DNA of 64,000 bases from Escherichia coli (GTDB lineage Bacteria; Pseudomonadota; Gammaproteobacteria; Enterobacterales; Enterobacteriaceae), in NCBI RefSeq assembly GCF_050920415.1, contig NZ_CP169309.1. The stretch is one strand, 5' to 3'. Under the pieces are notes generated by a model. That model was not told where the DNA came from. It was given only the letters and a program-made list of their open reading frames with translations, and did not search any database. A program made the translations under genes and the position numbers. Within the stretch, counting starts at the first letter, position 1. The number at the start of each line of letters is the position of its first letter. Shown here one piece after another: positions 2,906 to 35,634 of this stretch.

Positions 2906-2969
2906 TTTCTCTTCTAAAAGCAGTATGATGTCATAAAGTTAAGTGAGAATAATTAAGGGATGACTCGTC

Positions 2970-3905
2970 ATGGCACACTCACACAGTTCCTCACACCTGC
3001 CAGAAGATAATAATGCTCGTCGCTTGTTATATGCTTTCGGCGTGACTGCCGGGTTTATGCTGGTAGAAGTCATTGGTGGTTTTCTTTCCGGTTCTCTGGC
3101 ATTGCTGGCCGATGCGGGTCATATGTTGACCGATACTGCCGCCCTGCTTTTCGCCCTACTCGCCGTGCAATTCTCCCGTCGTCCTCCCACCATTCGCCAC
3201 ACTTTCGGTTGGCTAAGATTGACCACGCTCGCGGCGTTTGTGAATGCCATCGCTCTGGTGGTGATTACCATTTTGATTGTCTGGGAGGCGATAGAACGCT
3301 TCCGCACGCCGCGTCCGGTCGAGGGTGGCATGATGATGGCTATTGCCGTGGCTGGGCTGCTGGCCAATATACTTTCTTTCTGGTTACTTCATCACGGTAG
3401 CGAAGAGAAAAACCTCAACGTGCGCGCAGCGGCACTGCATGTTCTCGGGGACCTACTGGGTTCGGTTGGGGCTATTATTGCCGCGTTGATTATTATCTGG
3501 ACCGGCTGGACACCTGCAGACCCCATTCTCTCGATACTGGTATCGCTTCTGGTTCTGCGCAGCGCCTGGCGGTTATTGAAAGACAGCGTGAATGAATTAC
3601 TTGAAGGTGCGCCCGTTTCGCTGGATATCGCTGAAATGAAACGCCGCATGTGCCGGAAAATCCCGGAAGTCCGCAATGTGCACCATGTACATGTGTGGAT
3701 GGTGGGCGAAAAGCCAGTGATGACGCTGCATGTGCAGGTGATCCCGCCACACGATCACGACGCGTTGTTGGATCAGATCCAACATTATCTGATGGATCAC
3801 TATCAGATTGCACACGCCACCATCCAGATGGAATATCAACCTTGTCATGGGCCAGAGTGCCACCTGAACGAAGGGGTGTCTGGCCATTCACATCATCATC
3901 ATTAA
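2970..3905 (+). CDS. zitB: Zn(II) efflux transporter, cation diffusion facilitator family
   Basis: Multi-TM CDF-like protein with His-rich N- and C-termini (SHSSSH ... HSHHHH); synteny. Confidence 0.9.
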
Positions 3906-14663: not shown

Positions 14664-16232
14664 TTAGCGTGCCGGCTGAGTAGTCGTGGAAGACTGCTCA
14701 AAGTGATAGCGACCGGTTTTCAGGCTGCTTGGGCCGAGGCGTGCAAACTTGAACATCAAGAACAATTCTGCCACCAGGAACAGGGTATACAGGCCACAAA
14801 TCAGCACCATCGAGAAGATGAGGTCGCCTGCGGTCAGTGACGAGTTCGCTACAGCTGTCGGCAGCACTTCACCGATAGCCCAAGGTTGGCGACCATATTC
14901 AGCCACGAACCAGCCCGCTTCTACAGCAATCCACGGCAGCGGAATACCGTACAGTGCGGCGCGCAGCAGCCATTTTTTCTCGCCAATACGGTTGCGGATG
15001 ACACTCCAGAAAGAGAGCGCGATGATTGCCAGCAGCAGGAAGCCACACGCCACCATGATACGGAACGCGAAGTACAGCGGCGCTACACGTGGAATGGAGT
15101 CTTTGGTTGCCTGTTGAATCTGCGCTTCAGTCGCATCCGCCACGTTTGGCGTGTAGCGTTTCAGCAACAGACCGTAACCGAGGTCTTTCTTCATGCTATT
15201 GAACTGGTCACGAACCGCCTGGTCAGTAGACCCAGAACGCAGTTGCTCGAGCAGAGAGTACGCCTTCATCCCGTTACGGATGCGTTCTTCATGCTGCACC
15301 ATCAGCTCTTTCAGGCCGATAACCGGGGTATCCACGGAACGCGTTGCAATGATGCCCAGCGCGTAAGGGATCTGGATCGCAAATTTGTTCGTCTCCTCTT
15401 CCTGATCAGGAATGCCGAACAGAGTAAAGGCAGCAGGTGCAGGTTGCGTTTCCCACTCGGCTTCAATAGCAGCCAGTTTGGTTTTCTGCACGTCGCCCAT
15501 TTCATAACCAGATTCATCACCCAGAACAATAACAGACAGAACGGCAGCCATACCGAAGCTGGCAGCGATAGCAAAGGAGCGTTTAGCGAAGGCGAAGTCA
15601 CGACCTTTCAGCATATACCATGCGCTGATACCGAGGATGAACATCGCGCCAGTCACATAACCAGACGCTACCGTGTGAACGAATTTCACCTGAGCAACCG
15701 GGTTAAGCACCAGCTCGGAGAAGCTCACCATCTCCATACGCATAGTTTCAAAGTTGAAATCGGACGCGATTGGGTTTTGCATCCAGCCGTTCGCAACCAG
15801 AATCCACAGCGCGGACAGGTTTGAACCGAGCGCCACCAGCCAGGTGACACACATATGCTGAACTTTACCCAGACGATCCCAACCGAAGAAGAACAGACCT
15901 ACAAAGGTGGATTCGAGGAAGAAGGCCATCAGACCTTCGATTGCCAGCGGCGCGCCGAAAATATCCCCTACATAGTGGGAATAGTAAGACCAGTTAGTCC
16001 CGAACTGGAACTCCATGGTCAGACCGGTTGCCACACCCAGAGCGAAGTTGATACCAAACAACTTGCCCCAGAACTTGGTCATATCTTTATAAATCTGTTT
16101 GCCGGAAAGGACGTAGACCGTTTCCATAATGGCCAGCAGGAACGCCATACCGAGCGTCAGTGGCACAAAAAGGAAGTGGTACATCGCGGTCAAGGCAAAC
16201 TGTAAGCGCGACAGTTCGACTATATCTAACAT
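14664..16232 (-). CDS. cydA: Cytochrome bd-I ubiquinol oxidase subunit I
   Basis: Match to CydA; start at the second Met of the track ORF ([15 protein letters not shown]...). Confidence 0.95.
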
Positions 16233-16568
16233 CATGACTCCTTGCTCATCGCATGAAGACTCCGAGAGTGAACCCCGTTAGAAAGGGTCACACGCATGCC
16301 CCAATACAAAATTATTTGCTCGCCTCTATCGCTGCCTTTTCCTCAAAAGTGGAAAAGACAATGATAAAAAGTTACAAATATGTTAATGAATAAACCAAAT
16401 TGATCCCGTAATTATATTACGCCGCAAAATCCTTACAATAAACAGGTTTTTATTGAGCAAATTTGCATTTTTCGACAGTGATCAATTTATAGCGAAATTG
16501 TCACGACCTCACCAATTTGATCTACGACAATTTATCGTGTTTTGCAGATTTTTTTCAAGAATTAAAAA

Positions 16569-16582
16569 TTGATTTATATCAA
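16569..16582. promoter_or_regulatory. FNR/CRP-family half-site palindrome in the cydA upstream region
   Basis: Perfect TTGAT-TTAT-ATCAA about 335 bp upstream of the cydA start, in a roughly 800-bp AT-rich leader/promoter region. Confidence 0.55.
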
Positions 16583-17035
16583 AACCAATCAAATATGTTA
16601 ATTATGTATAAACCATAGACCATTGGTAATTTTATTGTTAATTTATTGTGAAATATTTATGTAACACAATTATTACAATAAAAAGACATAGATAAAAAAC
16701 CAGTGTTTTATTTAACAGAATCGCCTTATCAACTTTTTATAATACCAATTGATTAGAGTAGCCAATTTGTTGCTATTTTACATAACATATTTTTATCAAA
16801 GTTAATTGATTGTTGCCTTTATGAGCATCGCCGTAAGACCGCCATGTTATTGTTTCATTTGTAATAATCACCAATAAGTATCGATGAGAGAGATATCGCT
16901 TAACAGAGGCGACTGTGTCTGCATGAACACAGGCAACTTTCGCCTGATAAACGAAAAATGAGCGATTTTTGCAAGTTAGTTTTTCTATAGCTGGGTACGC
17001 TGAGCGCCTCGCTTGATTACAATGAGGTTGCTGCC

Positions 17036-17980
17036 ATGGGTCTTGATAATATAGGTTCTGTTGTCAATCGCTTCTCTGGTTGGCCATCAAATGATCCTCT
17101 AAAAACAGATAACGAATCAATGACATCACCCGTGACTGTGCAGGTAATAAAGTTGATTGCCGCCATCCTTGACCCACATCGGATAGTCGTTGGTATCGAT
17201 ACACTCTATACAACGCAGCGCAAAACATTTACCTCAGAGGGTCAACAACTCATTGAATCAGCATTGAAAACACTTAATGTGATGAATTTAAATAACCTGG
17301 AAACAGATCGCGATGAGGAGGGTAACTATCTGGCTTTTGGATATAACGTTGACACTCCTGACAGAATAACCGTTTCTGCTTATAATGAAAAAAAACCTTT
17401 CTGTTATGGCCAATGTCTTTTAATACAGGATGAAGAACCAGATTTATTTAACCTGGTAAAAATTAAAACCTTTGAAGCCAGGCATAATTATGTTTCTAAA
17501 TTGATGAGCGATCCGGAATTTATGTTTAAATTCAGTTATAGCGCCCAACAAAATAGATTAGAACCTCATCTTCTGGTTCCCACTTATTTCCCTCTGAAAA
17601 CAAACCAACCGGTTACGCTAGAGGATTTACTGATACTTTATCGTTTCTTTAAAATGAATGGCGATTTTAATATATTAACATCAGATGAATACATGAGTAT
17701 CATGACACCTCTGATGAAGTGTGAGCGTAGTGTCCACGACCATAACAGGTATGTGACGGGCAAAGATGCTCTTCTTCTGGACAATCCTCCGTCTGGTAAC
17801 CAGATATATTTCCATATTTCCCCTGACGAATCAGCAACACTTGTCCTTTATTTTTCAGACAATAACCTTGAATCCTTCGTCTTTGAAAATGATATTCCGA
17901 GCCAGTATCGACATTTCAAAATGTTTACCAATTTAGCACTAGTTATTGATCAGTTAACCGACGCCAATCAAATACTTTAA
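17036..17980 (+). CDS. Hypothetical protein, 314 aa, acidic, no recognised domain
   Basis: Clean ORF with GAGG RBS 8 nt upstream of the ATG; strongly AT-rich codon usage (N/K/I/F/Y-rich) unlike the flanking core genes; no signal peptide or TM segment evident. Confidence 0.6.
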   Translation: MGLDNIGSVVNRFSGWPSNDPLKTDNESMTSPVTVQVIKLIAAILDPHRIVVGIDTLYTTQRKTFTSEGQQLIESALKTLNVMNLNNLETDRDEEGNYLAFGYNVDTPDRITVSAYNEKKPFCYGQCLLIQDEEPDLFNLVKIKTFEARHNYVSKLMSDPEFMFKFSYSAQQNRLEPHLLVPTYFPLKTNQPVTLEDLLILYRFFKMNGDFNILTSDEYMSIMTPLMKCERSVHDHNRYVTGKDALLLDNPPSGNQIYFHISPDESATLVLYFSDNNLESFVFENDIPSQYRHFKMFTNLALVIDQLTDANQIL

Positions 17981-18059
17981 TTTTCTATACAGCCCTGTGT
18001 AAAATATTGCTAAACAGTGCCCGGGGTTGATTTTTATTCCTCACGGTGATATTTAAATC

Positions 18060-18482
18060 ATGACACCATCTCAGCTCTCTTTTAATACTCTTCCTGTCAA
18101 TGCAACATGCACTTCAGAGATAACAGTAAACACACAAAAATTCTCTGACATCCTCTACTCAGTGGGGTATTCCCTAAAGGATCTGGCTTATCTGAGCAGA
18201 TGTCTGGCATCATTACACCCAACACTCGCCAAAAACATTTATGAAACGGAAAATCTCAGCGATCAAAAATTACTTTATATAGATTGCCGTAGTACAAATG
18301 AAATCAAGATAAATATATTTTTGGGTCAAAAAAGAGAAGAATTAATCGAAATTAGTTCTGATACAGTCATTTTTTCGATACTGTCTTCATTGATTGACTC
18401 AGCTATTTCTGAACATCGACATCAAATCACCGTTAATGATTCAAATAATTCTGAACTATTTTATGAGGATTATACTGATTAA
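18060..18482 (+). CDS. Hypothetical small acidic protein, 140 aa
   Basis: ORF 80 bp downstream of the previous gene, same strand and same AT-rich composition; about 21 acidic versus 10 basic residues; Ser/Thr/Asn-rich N-terminus. Confidence 0.5.
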   Translation: MTPSQLSFNTLPVNATCTSEITVNTQKFSDILYSVGYSLKDLAYLSRCLASLHPTLAKNIYETENLSDQKLLYIDCRSTNEIKINIFLGQKREELIEISSDTVIFSILSSLIDSAISEHRHQITVNDSNNSELFYEDYTD

Positions 18483-19024
18483 ATCCACTCTGTGCGAACC
18501 TGTCCTGCATTTATGCCAGAAGTATTAGAATCTTTGCTTAACGTTACTCATACAGTAGCACCTTCATGTGTCTCTCTTTTTTACGAACAATCAAAAGAAC
18601 TAACAAGGGGCATAATTCGTATAAATTATTAACCATTTGTTATATTCAACATTTTTTTACATTAAGCAGAGATGAATTGCAGTGAAATTCAAGTTAAATT
18701 TTACGAAATGTATTACTCATGGCTAAAAAATCTTCCCAAAATGCAAATTAGAAGTTGATCACAATTATCTCAATCCATCAAATCAAGATAATTTTAAAAA
18801 TTTAACATCAATGACAGCGGTTGGCATAACACACTGAATTAAAATGAAAATTTAAAAAACAATTTTTAAACAATCATTTCCCGAAAGACATTTTGAAAAT
18901 AGATCAATTGCAACATTACGGTCAGATAAAGACACTCCTCTGATATTAAACCTGTGCCGTTATGAACGGCCATAAATACGACGTGTGTAACTTAATTTAC
19001 TCTCTGTCTTACAAAGGATTACCC

Positions 19025-19474
19025 ATGAAGAAAGCAACACTTGTGATTGGCGTTATTGGCGCGGACTGCCATGCAGTAGGCAATAAAGTTCTGGACCGCG
19101 TTTTTAGCAACCATGACTTCAGAGTCATTAATCTGGGCGTAATGGTCAGCCAGGACGAATATATTGATGCTGCCATTGAAACTGGCGCTGACGCGATTGT
19201 CGTCTCCTCTATCTATGGGCATGGCGATATCGACTGTCTGGGCATGCGCGAACGCTGCATTGAGCGTGGCTTGGGGGACATCCTGCTCTATGTGGGCGGC
19301 AACCTGGTGGTCGGAAAACATGACTTCGCTGACGTGGAAACCAAGTTCAAAGAGATGGGATTTGATCGCGTCTTCGCCCCAAGTCATGACTTAGAAGATG
19401 TCTGCCAGCTGATGGCCCACGATATCAACCAACGTCATGGCGTTGAAACTTGCATTCTTGAAGAGGCAATCTGA
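19025..19474 (+). CDS. glmS: Glutamate mutase sigma (S) subunit, B12-binding (methylaspartate mutase small subunit)
   Basis: [24 protein letters not shown]... carries the DxHxxG cobalamin-binding motif and resembles clostridial GlmS/MutS end to end; symbol is glutamate-mutase nomenclature, not GlcN-6-P synthase. The track ORF is extended 21 codons upstream. Confidence 0.85.
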
Positions 19475-20862
19475 TGCAAATCGTCTCTGTCGATATTGGA
19501 TCGACGTGGACCAAAGCAGCCCTCTTCACCCGGGAGGGGGACGCGTTAACGTTGGTTAACCACGTTCTGACCCCAACCACCATCCATCATCTGGCAGAGG
19601 GATTTTTCTCCAGCCTTAACCAGGTGTTAAACGTAGATAATGCCCTCCCCCTGTTAAACCGCGGTGAGGTTGCATTGAAGTATTCCTCTTCTGCCAAAGG
19701 TGGGCTGGCGGTTGCCGCAATGGGAATAGTGCCTTCTATCACTCTGGAAACCGCGAAAGTAACCGCTCACTCTGCAGGTGCTAAAATTGCGCAATATTAC
19801 TCCTACAAGCTGAACCGCCGTGATATCCAGGCACTAGAAGAAACGCAGCCCGATATTCTCTTGTTCACCGGCGGCACCGACGGCGGAGAAGAAAGCTACG
19901 GACTGAATAACGCCCGTGTGCTGGCAGAATCCAAACTCGACTGCGCCATTATTTATGCCGGAAACCGGGATATTCAGGACAAGGTGCAGGAGACCCTCGG
20001 GCATAAAGACCTGACCATCGTCGACAACGTTCTGCCCGATCTTGACCATCCGAACCCTTTAGCTGCACGCCAGGCTATCTGCGACATATTCCTTAAACGC
20101 ATCGTTAAAGGGAAAGGGCTGGATGTCATTGTTGATAAAACAGGCGAAGAACCAATGCCGACACCATGGACGGTCTTTGAACTGGTGAAGGCAATCAGTA
20201 ACGTCGATCACAGCTGGAAAGAGTTCATGCTGATCGACATGGGCGGCGCAACCACCGATGTCTATTCCGCCTGTGCCAACACGCTCTCGCCCGACACTGT
20301 TTTACATGGCGTACCGGAACCCTTCGTAAAACGGACGGTGGAAGGCGATCTGGGAATGCGCGTCTCGGCAATGGTGGTTGGTGAAAGTGCGAAAGAGTTA
20401 GTCAGTGTGAATTTTGCTCAGCAACCCGCACAGTTGGACGCTTTTTATCATTACCTCCGTCATCTAGTCGCTCATCCCGACTACTTACCCGCGAATGCAG
20501 ATGAAAAATATTTCGATACCGTCCTGGCCGGACTGTGTGTGGGTTATGCCACCGAAAGACATGCGGGCACCAAAAAAGAGGTCTGCACCTGCGTCGGCAA
20601 TGTCGATTTACAGATGGGACGTGACCTGACAACCGTGCGTAAAGTCGTGGGTTCCGGCGGATGGCTCTCGCGTGCCAGTCAGTTCGATATGCATCACTGG
20701 TTGAAATACCGCGAGTTAAACGACGACGGTAAACGCATTCTCTTACCGACCGAATTTGAATATTACCGCGATTCCCGGGGGCTATTACCACTGCTGGCAA
20801 ACGTCGCCAGAGTCGATCCGCTGGCCGCCGCGCGCACCAGTATTCAATGCTTAACCCTATAA
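19474..20862 (+). CDS. glmL: Glutamate mutase-associated component L (MutL/GlmL-like, predicted actin/hexokinase-fold ATPase)
   Basis: 462-aa ORF translationally coupled to glmS (TGATG) in the conserved S-L-E order; N-terminal DIGSTWTKAA ATPase-like motif. Confidence 0.7.
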   Translation: MQIVSVDIGSTWTKAALFTREGDALTLVNHVLTPTTIHHLAEGFFSSLNQVLNVDNALPLLNRGEVALKYSSSAKGGLAVAAMGIVPSITLETAKVTAHSAGAKIAQYYSYKLNRRDIQALEETQPDILLFTGGTDGGEESYGLNNARVLAESKLDCAIIYAGNRDIQDKVQETLGHKDLTIVDNVLPDLDHPNPLAARQAICDIFLKRIVKGKGLDVIVDKTGEEPMPTPWTVFELVKAISNVDHSWKEFMLIDMGGATTDVYSACANTLSPDTVLHGVPEPFVKRTVEGDLGMRVSAMVVGESAKELVSVNFAQQPAQLDAFYHYLRHLVAHPDYLPANADEKYFDTVLAGLCVGYATERHAGTKKEVCTCVGNVDLQMGRDLTTVRKVVGSGGWLSRASQFDMHHWLKYRELNDDGKRILLPTEFEYYRDSRGLLPLLANVARVDPLAAARTSIQCLTL

Positions 20863-20880
20863 CAATTAAGGCTGCAATCA

Positions 20881-22326
20881 ATGGAACTTCGAAATAAGAA
20901 ATTAACCCATGACGAATTCATGACCGAGCGGCAACAGGTATTGAAAACCTGGGAAACCGGCAAGGATGTTGAAAACTTTGAAGATGGCGTTAAATACCAA
21001 CAAACCATTCCTGAGCATAAACGCTTCTCTCTTGCCCTGCTGAAAGCAGACAAGGAAGGTAAAACCCTTAGCCAACCGCGCGCAGGCGTGGCGCTGATGG
21101 ACGAACACATCGAACTACTGAAAACACTACAAGAAGAGTGCGATCTGCTGCCGAGCACTATCGATGCATATACCCGTCTGAATCGGTACGAAGAAGCGGC
21201 TGTAGGGATTAAAAAATCCATCGAAGCCGGAACCTCTAAACTGAACGGTTTACCGGTAGTTAACCACGGCGTCGCAGCTTGCCGTCGCCTCACCGAAACT
21301 CTGCAAAAACCGCTACAGATCCGCCACGGCACGCCTGATGCGCGTCTGCTGGCTGAAATCTCGATGGCCAGCGGCTTTACCAGTTATGAAGGCGGCGGCA
21401 TTTCCTACAATATTCCGTATGCCAAGCGCGTAACGCTGGAAAAATCGATCCGCGACTGGCAGTACTGCGATCGTTTAATGGGGATGTATGAAGAACACGG
21501 GATCCGCATCAACCGCGAACCGTTTGGCCCACTAACGGGTACGCTAATCCCGCCGTTTATCTCGCACTCTATCGCAATAATCGAAGGCTTGCTGGCACTG
21601 GAACAGGGTGTGAAGTCTATCACCGTTGGTTATGGTCAGGTCGGTAGCCTGACGCAGGATGTTGCGGCGATCCAGTCTCTGCGGGAACTTGCACACGAAT
21701 ATTTTCAGAGCTATGGCTATACCGACTACGAATTAAGTACCGTGTTTCACCAGTGGATGGGAGGCTTTCCGGAGGACGAATCGAAAGCGTTCGCCATTAT
21801 CTCCTGGGGTGCTGCCGTCGCGGGGATGTCTGGTGCTACCAAAGTCATCACCAAAAGTCCGCACGAAGCCTGGGGCATCCCGACTGCTGCTGCCAACATT
21901 CAGGGGCTAAAAGCCTCCCGCCAGATGCTCAACATGGTCAACGAGCAGAAATTCCCGCCGTGCCCGGCGGTTGAACTAGAAATTGAACTGATTAAGAGCG
22001 AGGTTCGCGCTGTACTGAACAAAGTGTTCGAACTGGGCAATGGTGATATTGCGCGCGGTACGGTGCTGGCATTTGAAGCGGGCGTACTGGATGTGCCGTT
22101 TGCGCCAGCCGCCTGCAACGCAGGCAAAATTCTTCCGGTCCGTGACAACACCGGCGCGATACGCGTACTGGAAGCCGGAGCCGTTCCATTGCCAAAAGAT
22201 ATTCTCGACCTCCACCACGATTACGTTGCTGAACGCGCGCGCTTTGAAGGACGCCAACCGACATTCCAGATGGTTGTAGATGACATCAATGCTGTATCCC
22301 ACAGTAAATTAATAGGAAGACCATAA
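20881..22326 (+). CDS. glmE: Glutamate mutase epsilon (E) catalytic subunit
   Basis: 481 aa; long colinear similarity to clostridial GlmE/MutE (LSQPRAGVAL, PSTIDAYTR, NREPFGPLTGTL, FQMVVDDI...). Confidence 0.88.
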   Translation: MELRNKKLTHDEFMTERQQVLKTWETGKDVENFEDGVKYQQTIPEHKRFSLALLKADKEGKTLSQPRAGVALMDEHIELLKTLQEECDLLPSTIDAYTRLNRYEEAAVGIKKSIEAGTSKLNGLPVVNHGVAACRRLTETLQKPLQIRHGTPDARLLAEISMASGFTSYEGGGISYNIPYAKRVTLEKSIRDWQYCDRLMGMYEEHGIRINREPFGPLTGTLIPPFISHSIAIIEGLLALEQGVKSITVGYGQVGSLTQDVAAIQSLRELAHEYFQSYGYTDYELSTVFHQWMGGFPEDESKAFAIISWGAAVAGMSGATKVITKSPHEAWGIPTAAANIQGLKASRQMLNMVNEQKFPPCPAVELEIELIKSEVRAVLNKVFELGNGDIARGTVLAFEAGVLDVPFAPAACNAGKILPVRDNTGAIRVLEAGAVPLPKDILDLHHDYVAERARFEGRQPTFQMVVDDINAVSHSKLIGRP

Positions 22327-23567
22327 TGAAAATAAAACAGGCCCTTTTTACCGCTGGCTACTCCTCATTCTATTTCGATGATCAGCAGGCGATAAAAAAC
22401 GGAGCGGGTCACGACGGCTTTTTTTATACCGGAGAGCCGGTAACACAGGGGTTTAACGCCGTACGTCAGGCCGGGGAGTGCGTTTCGGTTCAGTTGATTC
22501 TGGAAAACGGTGCGGTCGCCGTAGGCGACTGTGCTGCCGTACAGTATTCCGGGGCAGGCGGTCGCGATCCACTGTTCCTCGCAGAGCACTTTATTCCGTT
22601 CCTCAACGACCATATCAAGCCATTACTGGTAGGCCGCGATGTGGATGCTTTCCTGCCGAATGCCCGTTTCTTCGACAAATTGCGTATTGACGGAAACTTG
22701 CTGCATACCGCCGTACGTTATGGATTATCACAGGCGCTGCTTGATGCTACCGCGCTGGCAACCGGCCGTCTAAAAACTGAAGTGGTCTGTGATGAATGGC
22801 AGTTGCCACGCGTGGCGGAATCCATTCCATTATTTGGTCAGAGCGGAGACGATCGATATATCGCTGTCGATAAGATGATCCTTAAGGGCATCGACGTGCT
22901 ACCTCATGCGCTGATTAATAACGTCGAAGAGAAACTGGGCTTTAAAGGAGAAAAACTGCGCGAATATGTCCGTTGGCTATCCGATCGGATTCTAAGCAAA
23001 CGCACCAGCGCACGCTACCACCCTACCCTACACATCGATGTATACGGCACTATTGGTCTGATCTTCGATATGGATCCGCTTCGCTGTGCGCAATACATCG
23101 CCAGTCTGGAAAAAGAGGCGCAAGGCCTGCCGCTCTACATTGAGGGGCCGGTCGATGCCGGTAACAAGCCCGATCAAATCCGCCTGCTGACCGCGATTAC
23201 CAAAGAGCTGACGCGCCTCGGTTCCGGCGTGAAAATTGTGGCCGATGAATGGTGTAACACCTACCAGGATATTGTTGATTTCACTGATGCCGCCAGTTGC
23301 CACATGGTGCAAATCAAAACCCCGGATCTGGGCAGTATTCACAACATCGTCGATGCAGTTCTTTATTGCAACAGCCACAGCATGGAAGCGTACCAGGGCG
23401 GCACCTGCAATGAAACCGATGTCAGCGCCCGCACGTGTGTCCACGTCGCCCTTGCCGCTCGCCCCATGCGTATGCTGGTAAAACCGGGGATGGGCTTTGA
23501 CGAAGGCCTCGATATCGTCTTCAACGAAATGAATCGTACTATCGCGCTGTTGCAGGCTAAGGATTAA
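22326..23567 (+). CDS. mal: 3-methylaspartate ammonia-lyase (beta-methylaspartase)
   Basis: 413-aa enolase-superfamily protein of typical MAL length; start overlaps the glmE stop (TAATG). Confidence 0.85.
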   Translation: MKIKQALFTAGYSSFYFDDQQAIKNGAGHDGFFYTGEPVTQGFNAVRQAGECVSVQLILENGAVAVGDCAAVQYSGAGGRDPLFLAEHFIPFLNDHIKPLLVGRDVDAFLPNARFFDKLRIDGNLLHTAVRYGLSQALLDATALATGRLKTEVVCDEWQLPRVAESIPLFGQSGDDRYIAVDKMILKGIDVLPHALINNVEEKLGFKGEKLREYVRWLSDRILSKRTSARYHPTLHIDVYGTIGLIFDMDPLRCAQYIASLEKEAQGLPLYIEGPVDAGNKPDQIRLLTAITKELTRLGSGVKIVADEWCNTYQDIVDFTDAASCHMVQIKTPDLGSIHNIVDAVLYCNSHSMEAYQGGTCNETDVSARTCVHVALAARPMRMLVKPGMGFDEGLDIVFNEMNRTIALLQAKD

Positions 23568-23570
23568 CAA

Positions 23571-24941
23571 ATGGCTCGTTCTTTTAAAGTCTTATCGCCA
23601 ACGGCAATCCTCGGGTATGGATTCCCGGAAGAGAGCTTCCGCAAAGCGATGGCAGAATCGCCCGATCTGATCGCCGTTGATGCAGGATCTTCCGATCCAG
23701 GTCCCCACTACCTCGGGGCAGGCAAACCGTTTACCGATCGCGCAGGGGTCAAGCGCGATCTGCGCTATATGATCACCGCAGGCGTGCAAAATAATATACC
23801 GGTGGTGATCGGAACGGCCGGCGGTTCTGGTGCCGCTCCACACCTGGAGTGGTGCCGAGAAATAATTCATGAGATTGCCCGGGAAGAGCGCCTCGCGTTC
23901 TCGATGGCGCTGATCCCGGCAGACGTTGACAAAGCCATCGTCCACCAGGCGCTGGATAACGGCAAAATCACGGCGCTGGATTTTGTCCCGCCGTTAACCC
24001 ACGACTCGATTGACGAAAGTACGTATATCGTCGCGCAAATGGGCATCGAACCCTTCCAGCGGGCGCTGAAAGAAGGAGCGCAAGTGGTGCTGGGCGGGCG
24101 CGCTTACGACCCGGCCTGCTTTGCTGCGCTTCCGATCATGCAAGGCTTTGATGAAGGTCTGGCACTGCATTGTGGGAAAATCCTTGAATGTGCGGCAATC
24201 GCTGCAACACCCGGCTCAGGCTCTGACTGTGCGATGGGCATCATTGATGACAACGGCTTTACGCTGAAGACGTTTAATCCGAAGCGTAAATTTACCGAAA
24301 CGTCAGCTGCTGCACACACACTGTATGAGAAATCCGATCCCTACTTTCTGCCAGGACCTGGCGGCGTGCTAAACCTGAAAGGTTGCACATTTAAAGCGAT
24401 CAATGATGGCGAAGTGTACGTCAGCGGTTCTAAGCATGAAGAAACGCCCTATGCCCTGAAACTGGAAGGTGCGCGGCGGGTGGGTTTCCGCTGTTTGACC
24501 ATCGCCGGAACGCGCGACCCGATCATGATCGCCGGGATCGATAACATCATCGATGAAGTCAAAACCAGCGTTTCGCGTAATCTGTCCTTAGACGATGACA
24601 GCATTCGCATCAATTTCCACCTGTACGGCAAAAACGGGGTGATGGGTGACCATGAACCGATGCAAACTGCCGGGCATGAGCTGGGGATTGTCCTTGATGT
24701 AGTTGCACCGACCCAGGAAATTGCCAACAGCGTTTGCTCGCTGGTGCGCTCTACCATGCTGCACTACGGCTATGAAAACCGCATCGCTACCGCAGGCAAC
24801 CTGGCGTTCCCGTTCTCCCCTTCTGATATCCAGGGCGGGCCGGTATACGAATTTTCCATATATCACCTGATTGAAGCCAACGACGCTCTGCGTTTTGATT
24901 TCCATATTGAACAGGTGACGCCAGAAGGAGTTCAGGCATGA
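23571..24941 (+). CDS. Uncharacterised protein, probably DUF1446 (AtuA-like) family
   Basis: 456-aa soluble protein inside the operon, 4 bp after mal; family assignment is from memory of the AtuA-like family and is tentative. Confidence 0.5.
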   Translation: MARSFKVLSPTAILGYGFPEESFRKAMAESPDLIAVDAGSSDPGPHYLGAGKPFTDRAGVKRDLRYMITAGVQNNIPVVIGTAGGSGAAPHLEWCREIIHEIAREERLAFSMALIPADVDKAIVHQALDNGKITALDFVPPLTHDSIDESTYIVAQMGIEPFQRALKEGAQVVLGGRAYDPACFAALPIMQGFDEGLALHCGKILECAAIAATPGSGSDCAMGIIDDNGFTLKTFNPKRKFTETSAAAHTLYEKSDPYFLPGPGGVLNLKGCTFKAINDGEVYVSGSKHEETPYALKLEGARRVGFRCLTIAGTRDPIMIAGIDNIIDEVKTSVSRNLSLDDDSIRINFHLYGKNGVMGDHEPMQTAGHELGIVLDVVAPTQEIANSVCSLVRSTMLHYGYENRIATAGNLAFPFSPSDIQGGPVYEFSIYHLIEANDALRFDFHIEQVTPEGVQA

Positions 24942-25255
24942 AACAGTCAATTGTCTCACTGGCGCAAGTCATTCGTTCGAAAAATGCCGGACCTTACGAA
25001 CTGGTTTTAGATATTTTATTTAAAACGAAAGAAAACTATGAGCGAGTAAAATCATCAGGGCAATTAACCCCAGAACTGATTGCGCGCTTATATCATGTTG
25101 AACCTGACTTTATTCATCGTATTGTCTGGTTTGATCCTTCTAACGCAGTAAAAATTGTCATGCCACGAGATATTATCTCCGGGAATGTAGGTGACAATGA
25201 TGTCTATGGCGCACAGCAACATGCACCTTTATTAAATATGAGTTTCGATTTGTAA
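24938..25255 (+). CDS. Small uncharacterised protein, probably DUF4387-like partner of the preceding gene
   Basis: 105-aa ORF overlapping the upstream stop by 4 nt (ATGA coupling). Confidence 0.5.
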   Translation: MKQSIVSLAQVIRSKNAGPYELVLDILFKTKENYERVKSSGQLTPELIARLYHVEPDFIHRIVWFDPSNAVKIVMPRDIISGNVGDNDVYGAQQHAPLLNMSFDL

Positions 25256-25341
25256 AAATCCGAACACTTTTAGCCAACTGACATCCCGTCACTTATTGCA
25301 GCTCAACACTTCAGCTATTTGTAAGGTTGTTATAGCAGGTA

Positions 25342-25367
25342 GATGCCTGAATCTCTATTCAGGCATC
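25342..25367 (+). promoter_or_regulatory. Perfect 11-bp inverted repeat (stem-loop or operator) between the DUF4387-like gene and the transporter gene
   Basis: gatgcctgaat-ctct-attcaggcatc; no downstream T-run, so not a classic intrinsic terminator. Confidence 0.4.
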
Positions 25368-25415
25368 CACTTCTCCTGATTCTGATTTATCGCCGTGCAC
25401 CTGATGGAGGAAAAA

Positions 25416-26696
25416 ATGAAGAAAATAAGTTTAACTACGATGATTCTTTTGGCGCTGGTACTTGGAATGATTATCGGCGTAGTGCTCAATAACACTGCTT
25501 CACCGGAAACAGCAAAACTCTATGCGCAAGAAATATCGATATTCACGACGATTTTCTTACGACTGATAAAAATGATTATCGCTCCGTTAGTGGTCTCTAC
25601 CCTGGTGGTAGGTATTGCTAAAATGGGCGATGCCAAAGCCCTTGGTCGTATTTTTTCTAAAACACTCTTTTTATTTATTTGCGCCTCATTGCTGTCAATT
25701 GCCTTAGGCTTGATAACGGTAAATTTCTTCATGCCAGGCACAGGAATTAATTTTGTTGCACACGGTGCCGAAACCACCGGAGTGGTCGCGTCAGAACCCT
25801 TTACACTAAAAGTATTTATTTCGCATGCTTTCCCCACCAGCATTGTCGATGCCATGGCGCACAATGAAATTTTGCAAATCGTGGTGTTCTCAATTTTCCT
25901 CGGCTGTAGCCTGACGGCGATTGGTGAGAAAGGCAGCGCCATCGTTCACGCCTTAGATTCGCTGGCACATGCCATGTTAAAGCTCACTGGCTACGTCATG
26001 CTCTTCGCTCCCCTGACCGTATTCGCCGCTATTTCAGCATTGATTGCTGAACGAGGACTGGCAGTTATGGTGAGCGCCGGGATCTTTATGGGTGAATTTT
26101 ATTTCACCATGTTATTACTTTGGGTGCTGCTTATCGGTCTGGCCATCGTTTATGTCGGCCCCTGCATCAGACGCCTGACCCGCGCCCTTTCAGAACCCGC
26201 CCTGCTGGCATTTACCACATCCAGTTCTGAAGCTGCTTTTCCGGGAACGCTTGAAAAACTGGAGCAATTTGGCGTTTCCCCCAAAATTGCCAGCTTTGTC
26301 TTACCCATTGGCTACTCATTTAATCTCGTTGGATCAATGGCCTACTGCTCCTTCGCCACAGTTTTCATCGCCCAGGCCTGCAATATCCATTTATCCATCG
26401 GTGAGCAAATCACCATGCTGTTGATCCTGATGTTGACCTCGAAAGGAATGGCTGGCGTACCACGCGCCTCAATGGTGGTTATCGCCGCCACGCTCAACCA
26501 GTTCAATATTCCGGAAGCGGGGCTGATCTTGCTGATGGGCGTTGATCCGTTCCTTGATATGGGGCGTTCCGCGACAAACGTCATGAGCAACGCAATGGGC
26601 GCTGCGATGGTGAGTCGGTGGGAAGGCGAACATTTCGGCGAGGGTTGTCGGGGTAAAGCATTAAAACCCAATGAATCGAACGTTGCTCTGCCCTGA
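25416..26696 (+). CDS. Dicarboxylate/amino acid:cation symporter (DAACS/GltP-DctA family)
   Basis: Polytopic membrane protein with an AFTTSSSEAAFP motif typical of the family; GGAGG RBS 5 nt before ATG 25416; the track ORF starts at an upstream GTG. Confidence 0.8.
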   Translation: MKKISLTTMILLALVLGMIIGVVLNNTASPETAKLYAQEISIFTTIFLRLIKMIIAPLVVSTLVVGIAKMGDAKALGRIFSKTLFLFICASLLSIALGLITVNFFMPGTGINFVAHGAETTGVVASEPFTLKVFISHAFPTSIVDAMAHNEILQIVVFSIFLGCSLTAIGEKGSAIVHALDSLAHAMLKLTGYVMLFAPLTVFAAISALIAERGLAVMVSAGIFMGEFYFTMLLLWVLLIGLAIVYVGPCIRRLTRALSEPALLAFTTSSSEAAFPGTLEKLEQFGVSPKIASFVLPIGYSFNLVGSMAYCSFATVFIAQACNIHLSIGEQITMLLILMLTSKGMAGVPRASMVVIAATLNQFNIPEAGLILLMGVDPFLDMGRSATNVMSNAMGAAMVSRWEGEHFGEGCRGKALKPNESNVALP

Positions 26697-26803
26697 GGGG
26701 GATCTTAAGCAATCAGAAGCCAATGACTACGCATTTTTATAAGCCGGATCATGAAGTTAGACGGCAATTAAGTAACACTAACGTTTAAGGTGAAAAGTGA
26801 AAT

Positions 26804-28456
26804 ATGTCCAAACCATTTATCTGGCAAGAACCGTTTCTACAAAATAAAGACGGTACAGAATATACATTAATTAGCGATCAACATATTACAGTAACGGAAT
26901 TAGACGGCGAAGAAGTGATAAAAATCGCTCCTGAAGCATTAACGCTGCTTGCCCGGCAGGCATTTTATGAAGCCTCTTTTTTCTTACGTTCCGCTCATTT
27001 GCAACAGGTCGCCAGCATTCTTAGCGATCCGCAGGCCAGTAGTAATGATAAATACGTTGCGTTGCAGTTATTACGTAATGCTGAAGTCTCAGCAAAAGGG
27101 GTATTACCCAACTGTCAGGATACCGGCACCGCAACTATTGTTGCCAGTAAAGGGCAACAGATATGGACGGGAGGTAACGACGCTGAAGCCTTAAGCAAAG
27201 GCATTTACAGTACTTTCCAGGAAAATAATCTGCGCTTTTCACAAAATGCGCCGCTGGATATGTATACCGAAGTCAATACGCAAACCAATCTCCCGGCGCA
27301 GATTGATATCAGCGCTGTCGCTGGTAATGAGTACCATTTTCTCTGTGTTAATAAAGGGGGCGGCTCCGCCAATAAAGCCGCGCTTTATCAGGAAACCAAA
27401 TCCTTATTGCAACCAGAAAAACTGACCGCGTTTTTAATCGACAAAATGAAATCGTTGGGCACGGCCGCCTGCCCGCCCTACCACATCGCCTTTGTCATCG
27501 GAGGGCTTTCAGCCGATCAAACCTTAAAAGTTGCCAAGCTGGCCTCTACGAAATATTACGACAATTTGCCCACCAGCGGAAACGAGCAGGGACAAGCATT
27601 CCGTGATATTGAGCTGGAAAAAGCGTTGCTCGAAGCCAGTCAGCAATTTGGTATTGGTGCGCAATTTGGGGGTAAATATTTCGCTCATGATATTCGCGTC
27701 ATTCGTCTGCCGCGTCACGGTGGCTCTTGCCCGATAGCTATGGCGCTCTCCTGTTCTGCCGATCGCAATATCAAAGCAAAAATTAACAAGCACGGTATCT
27801 GGCTGGAAAAACTCGAACACAATCCGGGGCAATATATTCCAGCCTCATTGCGGGAAGAAAATCACGCGCAACATGTACACCTGGATCTAAACCGTCCGTT
27901 GCGTGACGTGATGCAGGATCTCGCCAGATTACCGGTAGGTACCCGCGTGTCGTTAAGTGGTCCCATCGTAGTGGCGCGCGATATCGCCCACGCAAAAATA
28001 AAAGCGCGGCTGGATAGCGGCGAATCGATGCCGGATTACCTGAAGCATCATATTGTCTATTACGCTGGCCCGGCGAAAACACCGGAGAACATGGCCTGCG
28101 GTTCACTGGGTCCAACCACGGGCGGTCGAATGGACGGTTATGTCGAAACCTTCCAGGCGGCTGGCGGCAGTCTGGTAATGTTATCGAAAGGTAACCGCAG
28201 CCAGCAGGTCACCGATGCCTGTCACAAACATGGCGGCTTCAATCTGGGAAGTATTGGCGGTGCAGCTGCGTTACTGGCGCAAGAATATGTCAAAAGTCTG
28301 CGTTGCCTGGAATACCCGGAGCTGGGTATGGAGGCGGTGTGGATGATGGAAGTGGAAAATCTGCCCGCATTCATCCTGGTCGATGATAAAGGCAATAATT
28401 TCTTTAGTCAGTTTGAGCAGCAACACCGCTGCGCCAGTTGCCCTGCGGGACATTAA
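26804..28456 (+). CDS. fumD: Class I (Fe-S) fumarate hydratase paralogue, mesaconase-type
   Basis: 550 aa, colinear with FumA/FumB ([45 protein letters not shown]); the fumD name is by analogy to the O157:H7 mesaconase, as I recall it. Confidence 0.8.
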
Positions 28457-28465
28457 GGAAAATGA

Positions 28466-29068
28466 ATGGAAGCGCGAATTTCAACTGAACGGCATGTGCA
28501 GCGCCAGCAGAAATTGAAGGAACAGGTCGATACGCGCGTCGCGGCGGCGATAGAGAAAAAAGGGATCTTGATTGTTTTCACCGGCAACGGCAAAGGGAAA
28601 TCCACTGCCGCGTTTGGTACTGTGACGCGCGCGGTGGGTCATGGCAAAACGGTGGGGGTTGCACAGTACATCAAGGGGCAATGGGACAACGGCGAATACA
28701 ACCTTCTCCAGCCGCTGGGGGTTGAGTTTCATATTATGGGAACCGGTTTTACCTGGGAGACTCAGAACCGGCAAGCGGATATCGATGCGGCGAAAGAGGT
28801 CTGGTCGGAAAGCAAACGGATGCTGGCTGACAAGCGTTACGACTTAGTGGTGCTTGATGAGCTCACCTATATGCTGGCTTACCATTATCTGGATACAGAA
28901 GAAGTGATCACTTCTCTGCAAAACCGTCCGGCACAACAAAGTGTCATTGTCACCGGACGCGGTTGCCACAGTCAGATATTAAAAATGGCGGATACGGTAA
29001 GTGAAATCCGCCCCGTCAAACATGCTTTTGATAACGGCATTCAGGCCCAGCCGGGGATCGACTGGTAA
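28466..29068 (+). CDS. Cob(I)alamin adenosyltransferase (CobA/BtuR family) paralogue
   Basis: 200 aa with P-loop VFTGNGKGKST; colinear with E. coli BtuR. Confidence 0.85.
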   Translation: MEARISTERHVQRQQKLKEQVDTRVAAAIEKKGILIVFTGNGKGKSTAAFGTVTRAVGHGKTVGVAQYIKGQWDNGEYNLLQPLGVEFHIMGTGFTWETQNRQADIDAAKEVWSESKRMLADKRYDLVVLDELTYMLAYHYLDTEEVITSLQNRPAQQSVIVTGRGCHSQILKMADTVSEIRPVKHAFDNGIQAQPGIDW

Positions 29069-29071
29069 TAA

Positions 29072-29105
29072 CTGCGCCTGGCATCCCGCCAGGCGCAGGT
29101 TTTAC
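29072..29105. terminator. Bidirectional hairpin terminator between the cobA-like and LysR genes
   Basis: ctgcgcctgg-catcccg-ccaggcgcag with flanking T/A runs; lies between convergent stop codons. Confidence 0.6.
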
Positions 29106-30007
29106 ATCTCCTGCGGTACGACCGATTTCGCCAGCAACCATTCACGAAATTGCTGCAAGTGCGGAGAGTCAGACTTCTCTTCCTGCCACGTCATAATAAA
29201 ACGATTACCGGTACGAATAGGCACATCACAGGGGATCACCATATCGCCACTATCCAAATCATGTTGAATAGCGAACCGTGGTAACAGCGCCACGCCGAGA
29301 TTAGAGCGCACGGCGGCAATCAGCATTGAAAGCAAATCGAAACGTGGTCCGTTATTGACCAGCGGACTGCTAACGCCAGATAAAGCAAACCACTCTTCCC
29401 AGCCAGTAATACGGGTGCTTTGATGCAGAAGTGGTAACTCAGTAAGCAGTTCTGCCACTGACAGTTTTTGATCGGACATTGCAAGCAAACTGCCGCTGCA
29501 TACCGGCAAAATCTCCTCTTCAAAGAGATATTCTACTTCCGCCCAGGGCGCGCAAAAATTTTCGCGCATAATGACAGCATCGTACTCCCGATTAAGAAAA
29601 TCGCCGTTATTAGCTAAAGAATGAATATTAACAATAATATCGGGATGTAACTTTGTGAATTCATGTAAATTTGGGATTAACCAGTGGGTACTAAACGTAG
29701 GATTAACGGCAAGTTCAATAACCTGAACCGTAGGCTGCCAGGTCATAATCGTATTGGTATCGCGTTCCAGCTTATTTAATGTTTCTTTTACTATCCCCAG
29801 GTAATACTTCCCTGCATCATTAAGAAAAATGCGTTTTTTAGAGTGTGAAAATAACGGAGTATGTAAAAATTCCTCCAGCGCACTTACTTGTCTGAATACA
29901 GCACTTTGGGTTAACGCTAACTCCTCAGCCGCTCTGGTATAACTTTCATGTCGTGCGACGACCTCAAAAGTCACCAGCAGCTCCGTTTTAGGTATTTTTC
30001 CTCGCAT
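29102..30007 (-). CDS. LysR-family transcriptional regulator
   Basis: N-terminal helix-turn-helix (YTRAAEELALTQSAVFRQV) plus co-inducer-binding domain; start chosen at the internal Met (MRGKIP...), the track ORF extends to 30037. Confidence 0.8.
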   Translation of the reverse strand: MRGKIPKTELLVTFEVVARHESYTRAAEELALTQSAVFRQVSALEEFLHTPLFSHSKKRIFLNDAGKYYLGIVKETLNKLERDTNTIMTWQPTVQVIELAVNPTFSTHWLIPNLHEFTKLHPDIIVNIHSLANNGDFLNREYDAVIMRENFCAPWAEVEYLFEEEILPVCSGSLLAMSDQKLSVAELLTELPLLHQSTRITGWEEWFALSGVSSPLVNNGPRFDLLSMLIAAVRSNLGVALLPRFAIQHDLDSGDMVIPCDVPIRTGNRFIMTWQEEKSDSPHLQQFREWLLAKSVVPQEM

Positions 30008-30596
30008 AATGCCGTCCGTGAAAAAATAACAACTCAAAAATTATTTTATAAAAAACAGTAGCACTAATGAATATCATAATTCAAATAAACAAACCAGTCA
30101 GCTATATGTCTAACCAGGAAAATAAAGTGACAATAATCCTAAAACAGGAATTTCACCTCAGTTATCCGCATGCAATACTTTAAAGCTATTATTGCAAGAA
30201 TATTATTCATATACATGAATATACTCTAAATAAGTCAAGTTGCAGGAAGGGAACAAATAATGAATTTCCAGAAGCTTACATAAGTAAGTGACCTGGGTGA
30301 GCGAACATCGATGCAGCACATGCAACTTGAATTATGACAAGTATACAATGATAAATTTATATACCCTATGTTATATATTATCTATGTCCGGTTAAATTGA
30401 ATGAGTCATAGCCTTAAAAGACTTCACAAAAGATAATTCCTCTTTAACAATAAGCCAGATTTACCACTTGTAAAACTTGCTATCGCCACATACACTACGC
30501 GCGTTTTCTTTCCCTTTTGCTGGCTGCTGACCGGAAAGACAAAATTACCCTCGCAATACAGGGGGTTGTTTAACGTCTATATTTCAGGACAGCGTT

Positions 30597-31994
30597 ATGC
30601 ATCATCTTTTAAGGCTTGATAAAGCCTTTCTGCGCAAAGGGATCCAACTTTCCCGTGCCAACAATATTGTTTCATTATGTCGTCCATCAGGAGCCAGTGC
30701 CCGCGTACTGCTGCCGGACGAACTGCCGCTGGAAGAAAAAGCAGTGACACAACTGCTTGATTTTGCAGAAGTGAAGATACCAGGCCATCCAGGTTACGTA
30801 CGCCAGACGTGCGCGACGCCAGATTTTCATCCCGGCAATGGCGTCCCCGTTGGCGCGGTGGTGGCCTCAACGCCGGATTTAGTCATTCCCGCCGCCATCG
30901 GCACCGATATTTCTTGTGGCATGCGGCTGCTGACGACCGGATTAACACTTGAGCAAGCCGAAGCGCATAAAGACGTCATCGCTCAGCGGTTAACGCAAGT
31001 GCTACTGCAAAATGAGCGCGATGTTCCGTTATCCGCACAGGCGTTCACCGCGCTTTTTGATGGCGGACCGGCAGATTGCGTGTCGACCTTGCCATCAGCA
31101 GGTCTCTGGACACGCACGAATATCCCCCGAATGGTACAAGAGATTGACCGCTGCATTGGGCTTAACGAGCATAACAGTCATTCGCGTTATGCCCCACCCG
31201 CCCTGCTGGCAACGGACCGCGCATTACTCCGCGATCCTTGTCTGGGTACGCCGGGTTCAGGTAATCATTTTATTGAACTTCAGGTCGTTGATAGCGTGGT
31301 TGATCGCCATGTAGCCTGGCAACAAGGGCTGAAAACAGGCGATATTGTGGTGATGATCCACAGTGGATCGCGAGATGTTGGCTTTTACGTCGGAAGACGC
31401 TGGATGGATCGCGCCCGTGCTGAATGGCCCACCGGACATAAACATCCACAAAGCGGGTTATATGGTCTGGCAGGCGGACTGGCGGAGGAATATCTACAAG
31501 CGATAGGAATGGCGGCGCGTTACGCGTGGTTAAATCGCGTGACAATTGCCGAAATGGTGCGCGTATGTCTTGCCAATCTCTTTCATCAGGACAATTCGCA
31601 TCTGGTGGTGGATGTGCCACATAACATCATCCTTCGCGAGCATGAAATGAATATTCATCGCAAAGGCGCAACACCGGCACGAGTGGGCAATCTGGCGTTA
31701 ATCCCTGGTTCAATGGGCGATTATTCGTGGCTTGCGGTAGGTTGCGGCAACCCGGAGTGGCTGTGGTCATGCAGTCACGGAGCAGGACGCAGCCAGCGTC
31801 GGCAGGCCATGCGCTCACGCGCGACTGAAGAGTCAACGCTGCCGTGGCAATGCGTCACATTGCGCGAAGAACGACGTCTTGAAGAAGCGCCAGCGGCTTA
31901 TAAAGATATTGGTCCGGTTATCGAAGCTCAACAAGAAGCCGGATTAATTCAGCCAGCGGTCAGATTTCGACCGTGGTTAACGTTTAAAGCATAA
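30597..31994 (+). CDS. RtcB-family RNA ligase paralogue (3'-phosphate/5'-OH ligase)
   Basis: 465 aa with the RtcB signature blocks IPAAIGTDISCGMRL, GSGNHFIEL, MIHSGSRDVG, IPGSMGDYS and CSHGAGR; about 30-aa N-terminal extension relative to K-12 RtcB. Confidence 0.8.
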   Translation: MHHLLRLDKAFLRKGIQLSRANNIVSLCRPSGASARVLLPDELPLEEKAVTQLLDFAEVKIPGHPGYVRQTCATPDFHPGNGVPVGAVVASTPDLVIPAAIGTDISCGMRLLTTGLTLEQAEAHKDVIAQRLTQVLLQNERDVPLSAQAFTALFDGGPADCVSTLPSAGLWTRTNIPRMVQEIDRCIGLNEHNSHSRYAPPALLATDRALLRDPCLGTPGSGNHFIELQVVDSVVDRHVAWQQGLKTGDIVVMIHSGSRDVGFYVGRRWMDRARAEWPTGHKHPQSGLYGLAGGLAEEYLQAIGMAARYAWLNRVTIAEMVRVCLANLFHQDNSHLVVDVPHNIILREHEMNIHRKGATPARVGNLALIPGSMGDYSWLAVGCGNPEWLWSCSHGAGRSQRRQAMRSRATEESTLPWQCVTLREERRLEEAPAAYKDIGPVIEAQQEAGLIQPAVRFRPWLTFKA

Positions 31995-32091
31995 AAAAGG
32001 CCATCATATGATGGCCAACCATGTCGAAACCGACAGCCCTTCGCCATTCCTGTAGAGGGAAGCGGCGAGGGCTATTTCTTATTACAAGTAT
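31993..32091 (-). ncRNA. sdhX: 3'-UTR-derived sRNA SdhX (RybD) with the sucD terminator
   Basis: About 97 nt directly after the sucD stop, ending in the ggccatcat-atgatggcc hairpin plus U-run (31993-32016); assigned from position relative to sucD, sequence identity to K-12 not verified. Confidence 0.45.
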
Positions 32092-32961
32092 TTATTTCAG
32101 AACAGTTTTCAGAGCTTCACCGATGTCAGCCAGGCTGCGAACGGTTTTCACGCCTGCGGCTTCCAGAGCAGCGAATTTCTCATCCGCAGTCCCTTTCCCA
32201 CCGGCAATGATGGCACCCGCGTGGCCCATACGTTTGCCTTTCGGCGCAGTTACACCAGCGATGTAACCTACAACTGGCTTGGTAACGTGCTCTTTGATGT
32301 ACGCAGCCGCTTCTTCTTCAGCGCTACCGCCGATCTCACCGATCATCACGATCGCTTCGGTCTGCGGATCTTTTTCGAACATTTCGAGGATGTCGATAAA
32401 GTTAGAACCAGGGATCGGGTCGCCGCCGATACCGACACAGGTCGACTGACCGAAACCGTAATCCGTGGTCTGTTTAACCGCTTCATAGGTCAGTGTACCG
32501 GAACGGGAAACGATACCCACTTTACCCGGTTTGTGAATGTGACCAGGCTGGATGCCGATTTTACATTCACCCGGAGTGATAACGCCCGGGCAGTTCGGGC
32601 CGATCATGCGTACGCCAGCTTCGTCCAGTTTCACTTTCACCGTCAGCATATCCAGCGTCGGGATGCCTTCAGTGATGGTGATAATCAGTTTGATACCTGC
32701 GTCGATGGCTTCCAGAATGGAGTCTTTGCAGAACGGAGCCGGTACGTAGATAACAGAAGCGGTAGCGCCAGTGGCAGCAACGGCTTCACGCACGGTGTTG
32801 AACACCGGCAGACCAAGGTGGGTAGTACCGCCTTTACCTGGGGTTACGCCGCCAACCATTTTAGTGCCGTATGCAATGGCCTGTTCAGAGTGGAAAGTCC
32901 CCTGGCTACCAGTAAAGCCCTGGCAGATAACCTTGGTGTTTTTATCAATTAAAATGGACAT
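32092..32961 (-). CDS. sucD: Succinyl-CoA synthetase alpha subunit
   Basis: 289-aa match to SucD. Confidence 0.95.
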
Positions 32962-34127: not shown

Positions 34128-34209
34128 GTGTTCTGTCCATCCTTCAGTAATCGTTATCTTTTAAACCGTAGACCGAATATTTCGTATCGCTTCCGGGTAT
34201 TGTCGGTCA

Positions 34210-34380: not shown

Positions 34381-34402
34381 AGTGCAGGTGAAACTTAAAC
34401 TA

Positions 34403-35620: not shown

Positions 35621-35634
35621 TGTGTATCCTTTAT

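Follow-up and report, generated by a model that had tools for sequence, protein, structure and literature searches.

Layout of the sucD-cydA locus

Cytochrome bd-I subunit I is encoded by cydA at 14664-16232 on the minus strand of the window, the 64,000-nucleotide stretch of Escherichia coli DNA analysed here (NCBIfam PRK15097, 1179 bits; RefSeq annotation of E. coli MFDS1022581, which is 100% identical to the window). RefSeq places the cydA start at 16232, with a further in-frame ATG at 16235, and the gene shares 97.8% nucleotide identity with cydA of K-12 and encodes an identical protein. The sequence upstream of cydA is AT-rich, as an earlier description from the sequence alone (the original prediction) had it, with a G+C content of 22-41% across 16200-16900, a low of 22% at 16500-16800, and an unbroken run of 22-45% from 16300 to 18900. 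It contains a perfect TTGAT-N4-ATCAA palindrome at 16569-16582 (TTGATTTATATCAA), and the partial copies reported with it are real, with two or fewer mismatches at 16472-16485, 16517-16530 and 17013-17026. Past the palindrome, a 314-aa open reading frame (ORF1, 17036-17980, plus strand) diverges from cydA, also as described, and a 140-aa reading frame (ORF2, 18060-18482) lies on the same strand.

Between cydA and sucD, the window carries an RtcB-family gene, a LysR-type regulator gene, cobO, fumD, a transporter gene, DUF4387, AtuA-family genes, a methylaspartate ammonia-lyase gene, mutE, glmL, glmS and two hypothetical ORFs, with no integrase or tRNA annotated in this interval. Farther away, at about 45000-64000 (16300-36001 of the identical-strain locus), the RefSeq annotation of MFDS1022581 lists a fimbrial usher gene broken by the IS21-family element ISEc62, a group II intron reverse transcriptase with a frameshift, a fragment of an ISAs1 transposase, and a gene for an S-type pyocin domain protein next to that for its immunity protein.

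The FNR-1 palindrome and the cydAB control module

Perfect TTGAT-N4-ATCAA palindromes occur twice in the 64-kb window against 0.10 expected, and the probability of at least one perfect match arising by chance in the 803-bp intergenic region is about 0.004 (20,000 composition-preserving shuffles, 0.4%). TTGAT and ATCAA pentamers number 11 against 3.2 expected, a count reached in 0 of 1000 shuffles. The second perfect palindrome (33532-33545, TTGATTTCGATCAA) falls within the coding sequence of sucC; the sucC gene of K-12 lacks it, and it is probably a chance occurrence.

Global alignment of the cydA upstream region places the palindrome column for column on K-12 770333-770346 (U00096.2; TTGATATTTATCAA) and 16517-16530 on K-12 770385-770398 (TTGTTCTCGATCAA). 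Both K-12 sequences are listed as FNR motifs beneath the cydA FNR ChIP-seq peak (Myers 2013, PMC3688515), and the same study counts cydAB among the operons that FNR represses directly, giving a site at -53.5 (Myers 2013 Table 1, PMC3688515). Homology to K-12 passes 16569, reaching 16607 by megablast and about 16656 by blastn, and since it extends through the palindrome rather than ending well before it, the alignment does not tell against the original prediction.

To sample other genera, species-representative genomes were scanned with the exact 24-nt sequence of a hairpin in the cydA 5'-UTR (below), which leaves species with a divergent UTR outside the sample; E. albertii, E. fergusonii, E. 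marmotae, S. enterica and K. pneumoniae were not among the species returned. The scan yielded 29 loci from Escherichia, Citrobacter, Klebsiella, Raoultella, Salmonella arizonae, Superficieibacter and Enterobacter. Because the palindrome lies 290 nt away from the 24-mer, selection on the latter introduces no bias on the former. A perfect palindrome stands 289-295 nt upstream of the UTR hairpin in every species with enough upstream DNA (28/28, six genera); its half-sites are invariant, the N4 spacer reads ATAA, ATTT, TTAA, TTAT or TTTA, and the module around it is merely 72-85% identical across species. The alignment also conserves the right half-site of FNR-2, the P1 hexamers, a third FNR-like block, the proximal promoter, the ArcA boxes and the UTR, each described below. 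Between genera, homology on the cydA side ends at 16582-16649; the conserved control module stops about 70-100 bp past the palindrome, and the DNA distal to it is lineage-variable. In the window this distal DNA is of Escherichia type as far as 16885 and is followed by a low-GC cassette and then by the methylaspartate operon (below).

That the palindrome is a functionless product of AT-rich sequence could be argued from the base composition and from the match in sucC, which K-12 lacks. The local probability of about 0.004, the retention of its position in 28 of 28 species while the spacers vary, and the occupancy of its K-12 ortholog by FNR in vivo all speak against this, and on the strength of this conservation and of the ChIP-seq results in K-12 we regard a chance palindrome as effectively refuted.

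The best explanation, to which we assign a probability of roughly 0.9, is that the cydAB operon has its FNR-1 operator in the palindrome at 16569-16582. FNR-type control of cydAB had been proposed from the palindrome alone, and the alignment upholds it, the site being the exact ortholog of K-12 FNR-1. The FNR-1 element of cydAB is already known, and the site in the window is orthologous to an FNR operator that ranks among the best studied. The FNR-1 and FNR-2 sites of the K-12 cydAB promoter were reportedly described by Cotter and colleagues in 1997 and by Govantes and colleagues in 2000. A P2-P5 nomenclature is also in use for cydAB promoters. Experimental evidence for binding by FNR and ArcA, and for repression, comes solely from K-12, from which we infer the behaviour of the present strain.

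The promoter that FNR-1 would control, P1 (16529-16558, minus strand), has a -35 hexamer TTGAAA at 16553-16558 and a -10 hexamer TAAATT at 16529-16534, found by promoter scan and conserved, at the spacing expected from FNR-1 and FNR-2. Its start is put at 16522, back-calculated from the -53.5 position of FNR-1 (Myers 2013 Table 1), which centres FNR-1 at -53.5. The FNR-2 ortholog at 16517-16530 (TTGTCGTAGATCAA in the cydA orientation) is centred at -1.5 of P1, 52 bp centre to centre from FNR-1 as in K-12, and its right half-site GATCAAATTG is invariant across the aligned sequences. With two mismatches in the window against one in K-12, FNR-2 could differ in the strength of repression that it confers. 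A third FNR-like block with two mismatches (16472-16485; TTGATCACTGTCGA in the cydA orientation) is near-invariant across genera, with the conserved pattern TTGATCAC-N-GTCGAA. This block falls between P1 and the proximal promoter, and it is not among the FNR motifs in the parts of Myers 2013 available to us.

A proximal sigma-70 promoter (16411-16438, minus strand; TTGTAA, 16-nt spacer, TATAAT; 10/12 in the promoter scan) has its predicted start at about 16404. It is near-invariant in 31 sequences and matches the DNA upstream of the mapped K-12 transcription start site, given as 770509, with a 172-nt UTR before the ATG (Kim 2012 supplement). Transcription from this second conserved promoter would accordingly begin about 172 nt upstream of the cydA ATG in the window. 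The 172-nt 5'-UTR thus delimited by the K-12 start site and the 31-sequence alignment (16233-16404, minus strand) contains a hairpin at about 16322-16372 with covarying, compensatory changes across 32 sequences (Alifold pair counts; fold z = -2.6). Beside the cydA ATG, a near-invariant block of about 85 nt, conserved in six genera, holds the hairpin GTGACCCTTTCTAACGGGGTTCAC (GTGACCC...GGGGTTCAC, 16268-16291). A search of 15800-19200, the cydA UTR included, against Rfam at E <= 1 returned no match. A candidate 21-codon upstream ORF (ATGCGTGTG...TCATGA), read by eye, overlaps the cydA start. The conserved structured UTR is a modest side finding.

ArcA sites were sought with a position weight matrix built from 115 ArcA boxes read off Park 2013 Table S3, the title of which gives 128 boxes. 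Eight matches of at least 11 bits were obtained against 0.86 expected, and they include orthologs of K-12 ChIP-seq sites. The box at 16369-16386 (plus strand, 20.5 bits) aligns to K-12 770526-770556, the 'cydA3' site, and is conserved across genera, and the cluster at 16595-16678 (plus strand, 13.0-20.5 bits) aligns to K-12 770260-770311, the 'cydA2' site, whose ortholog is placed at 16595-16652, and forms the distal end of the module conserved between genera. Two distal ArcA-like boxes at 16782-16816 (17.3 and 14.0 bits) lie in Escherichia-specific DNA and are placed like K-12 'cydA1' but are not homologous to it; the segment is common to E. whittamii, Escherichia sp. E1V33, E. coli E69 and strains carrying a TPR gene in the interval, and is not found in K-12.

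Under anaerobiosis, dimeric [4Fe-4S]-FNR would bind FNR-1, centred at -53.5, and the presumably weaker FNR-2, centred at -1.5 over the P1 start, and occupancy of both would jointly repress P1. In K-12, H-NS represses cydAB and ArcA relieves this repression (Park 2013 citing Govantes 2000). Phosphorylated ArcA on 16369-16386, on 16595-16678 and probably on 16782-16816 would counteract silencing of the AT-rich region by H-NS, and the combination of FNR repression with ArcA anti-silencing would give maximal cytochrome bd expression in microaerobiosis.

The control module is the same in the window and in K-12 as to the position of the site relative to the cydA ATG, P1 and FNR-2, the perfect half-sites, ArcA sites II and III, the P1 hexamers, the proximal promoter and the 5'-UTR. 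The two differ in the FNR-1 spacer (ATAA in the window, ATTT in K-12), and the surrounding module is about 71-80% identical; beyond about 16656 the two sequences are unrelated, K-12 ArcA site I falling in this part, although the ArcA-like boxes of the window lie at a similar distance. FNR-repressed promoters with tandem operators, such as ndh, are likewise repressed through two or more FNR sites that lie upstream of the core promoter or around it, but differ from cydAB in spacing and partner regulators.

Neighbouring genes and the low-GC cassette

What lies between sucD and cydA is hypervariable among E. coli strains: in K-12 it is mngR-mngA-mngB, in others a TPR gene with or without mngB. Divergent from cydA, glmS and the methylaspartate ammonia-lyase gene stand beside it in most of the retrieved Citrobacter and Klebsiella species, and the same arrangement of these genes occurs in a Raoultella MAG, S. 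arizonae, E. whittamii, Escherichia sp. E1V33 and MOD1-EC7003; mngB adjoins cydA in Superficieibacter, C. sedlakii and one C. amalonaticus. E. coli E69, with the order sucD-TPR-cydA, keeps two short glmS fragments beside its cydA upstream region (2927-3032 of the retrieved locus), a sign that this lineage has lost the methylaspartate cluster by deletion or replacement. Synteny across genera and these leftover fragments together mark the cluster as an old neighbour that was lost or replaced in many E. coli, and we conclude that it is an ancient syntenic neighbour of cydA and not a new acquisition. The methylaspartate operon has a G+C content of 46-55%, like the core genome, compared with 26-45% in a cassette at 16886-18730.

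This bears on the description of the first gene beyond the cydA upstream region as a newly acquired island gene. Given the divergent methylaspartate cluster next to cydA in at least five genera, that description does not hold for the cluster and fits only the 16886-18730 cassette. The upstream region had also been taken for the left junction of the island. Sequence shared with K-12 does stop shortly past the palindrome, but an insertion junction at that point (about 16610-16656) was considered and rejected because all genera lose homology about there, so that the fading of K-12 homology marks the distal edge of the conserved module and not an insertion scar.

The gene set matches the glutamate-fermentation (methylaspartate or FumD) cluster known from E. 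coli O157:H7 and other Enterobacteriaceae (Kronen and Berg 2015, PMC4682846). Common to the window and this known cluster are glmS, glmL, mutE, methylaspartate ammonia-lyase, DUF1446/AtuA-like genes, a transporter, the class I fumarase FumD, a cobalamin adenosyltransferase and a LysR regulator. The frequency of the cluster in E. coli is 21% here versus 26.5% in that study, and neither the synteny with cydA across genera nor the two-ORF cassette is found in the parts of the paper available to us (Kronen and Berg 2015, PMC4682846).

On the far side of the cassette, homology to other genera sets in again at about 18731-18870. In comparison with E. whittamii and E1V33, 18731-23925 is about 88.6% identical, versus about 94% on the cydA side. 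A conserved promoter module of glmS and the methylaspartate operon occupies 18731-19024 (plus strand), recognised by invariant blocks in a 19-species alignment. One block invariant in these species, ATATT(T/C)TGAAAATAGATCAATTGC, lies about 105-130 nt before the glmS ATG and is an imperfect palindrome, possibly a site for the LysR-type regulator; another, GATCACAAA, lies about 260 nt before the ATG and is a possible CRP half-site on the other strand.

The lineage-specific cassette itself (16886-18730, plus strand, 1.85 kb, delimited by blastn breakpoints) contains ORF1 and ORF2 and stands in place of about 430 bp in E. whittamii and E1V33, to which the window is homologous from the methylaspartate operon as far as 18731 and, past the cassette, from 16885 (16871 in E1V33) on into cydA. 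The boundary at 16885/16886 is the only true insertion junction; it is distal to both the palindrome, at 303 bp from it, and the outermost predicted ArcA box, at 70 bp, and no repeats were found at the cassette boundaries 16886 and 18730. ORF1 and ORF2 gave no matches in NCBIfam, Pfam or PADLOC, and homologs of ORF1 form just five Escherichia-type clusters among 5.8 billion proteins, without a functional clue. Both reading frames are intact, and dN/dS between alleles is 0.35-0.37, that is, moderate purifying selection, with a dS of 0.18-0.24, about twice that of the flanking cydA and glmS. The ORF1 ortholog of MOD1-EC7003 has a protein identity of merely 49-66%. The cassette occurs in 1135/5426 E. 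coli genomes, and the window allele of ORF1 and its leader is rare, matched at 99% identity or more in 16 genomes and at 90-95% in 1117, O157:H7 included.

The original prediction held that the new gene might share the cydA regulatory region or disturb it. Sharing would make FNR-1 bifunctional, repressing cydA P1 and activating a divergent plus-strand promoter toward ORF1, or toward glmS elsewhere. The divergence of cydA and ORF1 agrees with this, as does a -10-like hexamer TATAAA at 16607-16612, seen by eye, which would put the FNR centre at about -43, near a class II position; glutamate fermentation is moreover an anaerobic pathway (Kronen and Berg 2015, PMC4682846). Yet that hexamer lies inside a conserved ArcA box, which accounts for its conservation, and a consensus scan of 16200-17100, in itself weak evidence, finds no promoter-like site on the plus strand. 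The ORF1 ATG is 454 bp from the palindrome, and in species free of the cassette glmS is more than 1 kb away. The palindrome is kept equally beside glmS, convergent mngB, the TPR gene or ORF1, and the roughly 300 nt before the glmS ATG hold a conserved promoter module belonging to that gene, where the 19-species alignment holds no conserved canonical FNR site (the invariant block has a 5-bp spacing or three mismatches). With no promoter-like site facing ORF1 in 16200-17100, a distance of 454 bp, a palindrome independent of its neighbour and a glmS promoter of its own, sharing is unsupported, and we consider a bifunctional FNR-1 very improbable.

Disturbance could also be indirect, the cassette lengthening an H-NS domain and so changing aerobic silencing of cydAB or its relief by ArcA. 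Silencing by H-NS and its relief by ArcA in K-12 (Park 2013 citing Govantes 2000) make such an effect conceivable, the low G+C content is unbroken from 16300 to 18900, and the cassette opens only 70 bp past the most distal predicted ArcA box. Against it, the core module and every predicted site are intact and conserved, and about 21% of E. coli genomes, together with another Escherichia lineage, carry the cassette at the same place, which suggests that it is tolerated. We judge an indirect effect of this kind unlikely, if less so than a shared operator. FNR-1 as the operator of cydAB, independent of the gene next to it, remains our preferred reading; the original prediction was right in outline on regulation, and its evolutionary framing is largely not supported.

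Promoter alleles in E. coli

Across 16293-16656, E. coli has two alleles of the cydA promoter region, the K-12 type in 3182/5426 genomes (59%) and the window type in 2244, of which 1135 also carry the cassette. The 3182 were counted as carriers of the K-12-specific distal DNA, and 96% of them have it at 99% identity or more. Measured over a core module of 338 columns, alleles of the window type (E. coli, MOD1-EC7003, E1V33, E. whittamii and E69) lie at a distance of 0.04-0.09 from the window, whereas the K-12 allele lies 0.26-0.29 from all others, Escherichia and Citrobacter alike, and forms a long branch outside the Escherichia clade. For comparison, dS in cydA is about 0.09 between the window and strain 57_142493. 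With cydA itself 97.8% identical between the window and K-12, the discontinuity begins just upstream of the invariant UTR block, at about 16293-16310, and the alleles are least alike at 16323-16379, which forms the stem of the compensated UTR hairpin. By these sequence distances K-12 is the outlier in its promoter allele, and it is a poor island-free reference and not ancestral. Whether the K-12 cydAB control region, which differs by 26-29% from the allele of the remaining E. coli and of four other Escherichia-lineage representatives returned by the scan, is a xenologous allele, tied to the distal DNA specific to mngRAB, we put at even odds. The promoter-allele dimorphism is a modest side finding.

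Together these comparisons delimit a minimal conserved cydAB control module, consisting of FNR-1 and FNR-2, ArcA sites II and III, two promoters and a structured UTR, and the presence of the palindrome suggests that oxygen control of cydAB is intact in this strain. If the K-12 allele is indeed xenologous, the sucD-cydA interval would be an old replacement hotspot in which the methylaspartate cluster, mngRAB and the TPR gene were swapped along with part of the cydA promoter, while selection kept just the FNR, ArcA, promoter and UTR-structure elements, and distal features of K-12, ArcA site I among them, would not hold for E. coli as a whole. Should the dimorphism affect expression, what is known of cytochrome bd regulation from K-12 may not transfer fully to the roughly 41% of E. 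coli, O157:H7 included, that carry the other allele.
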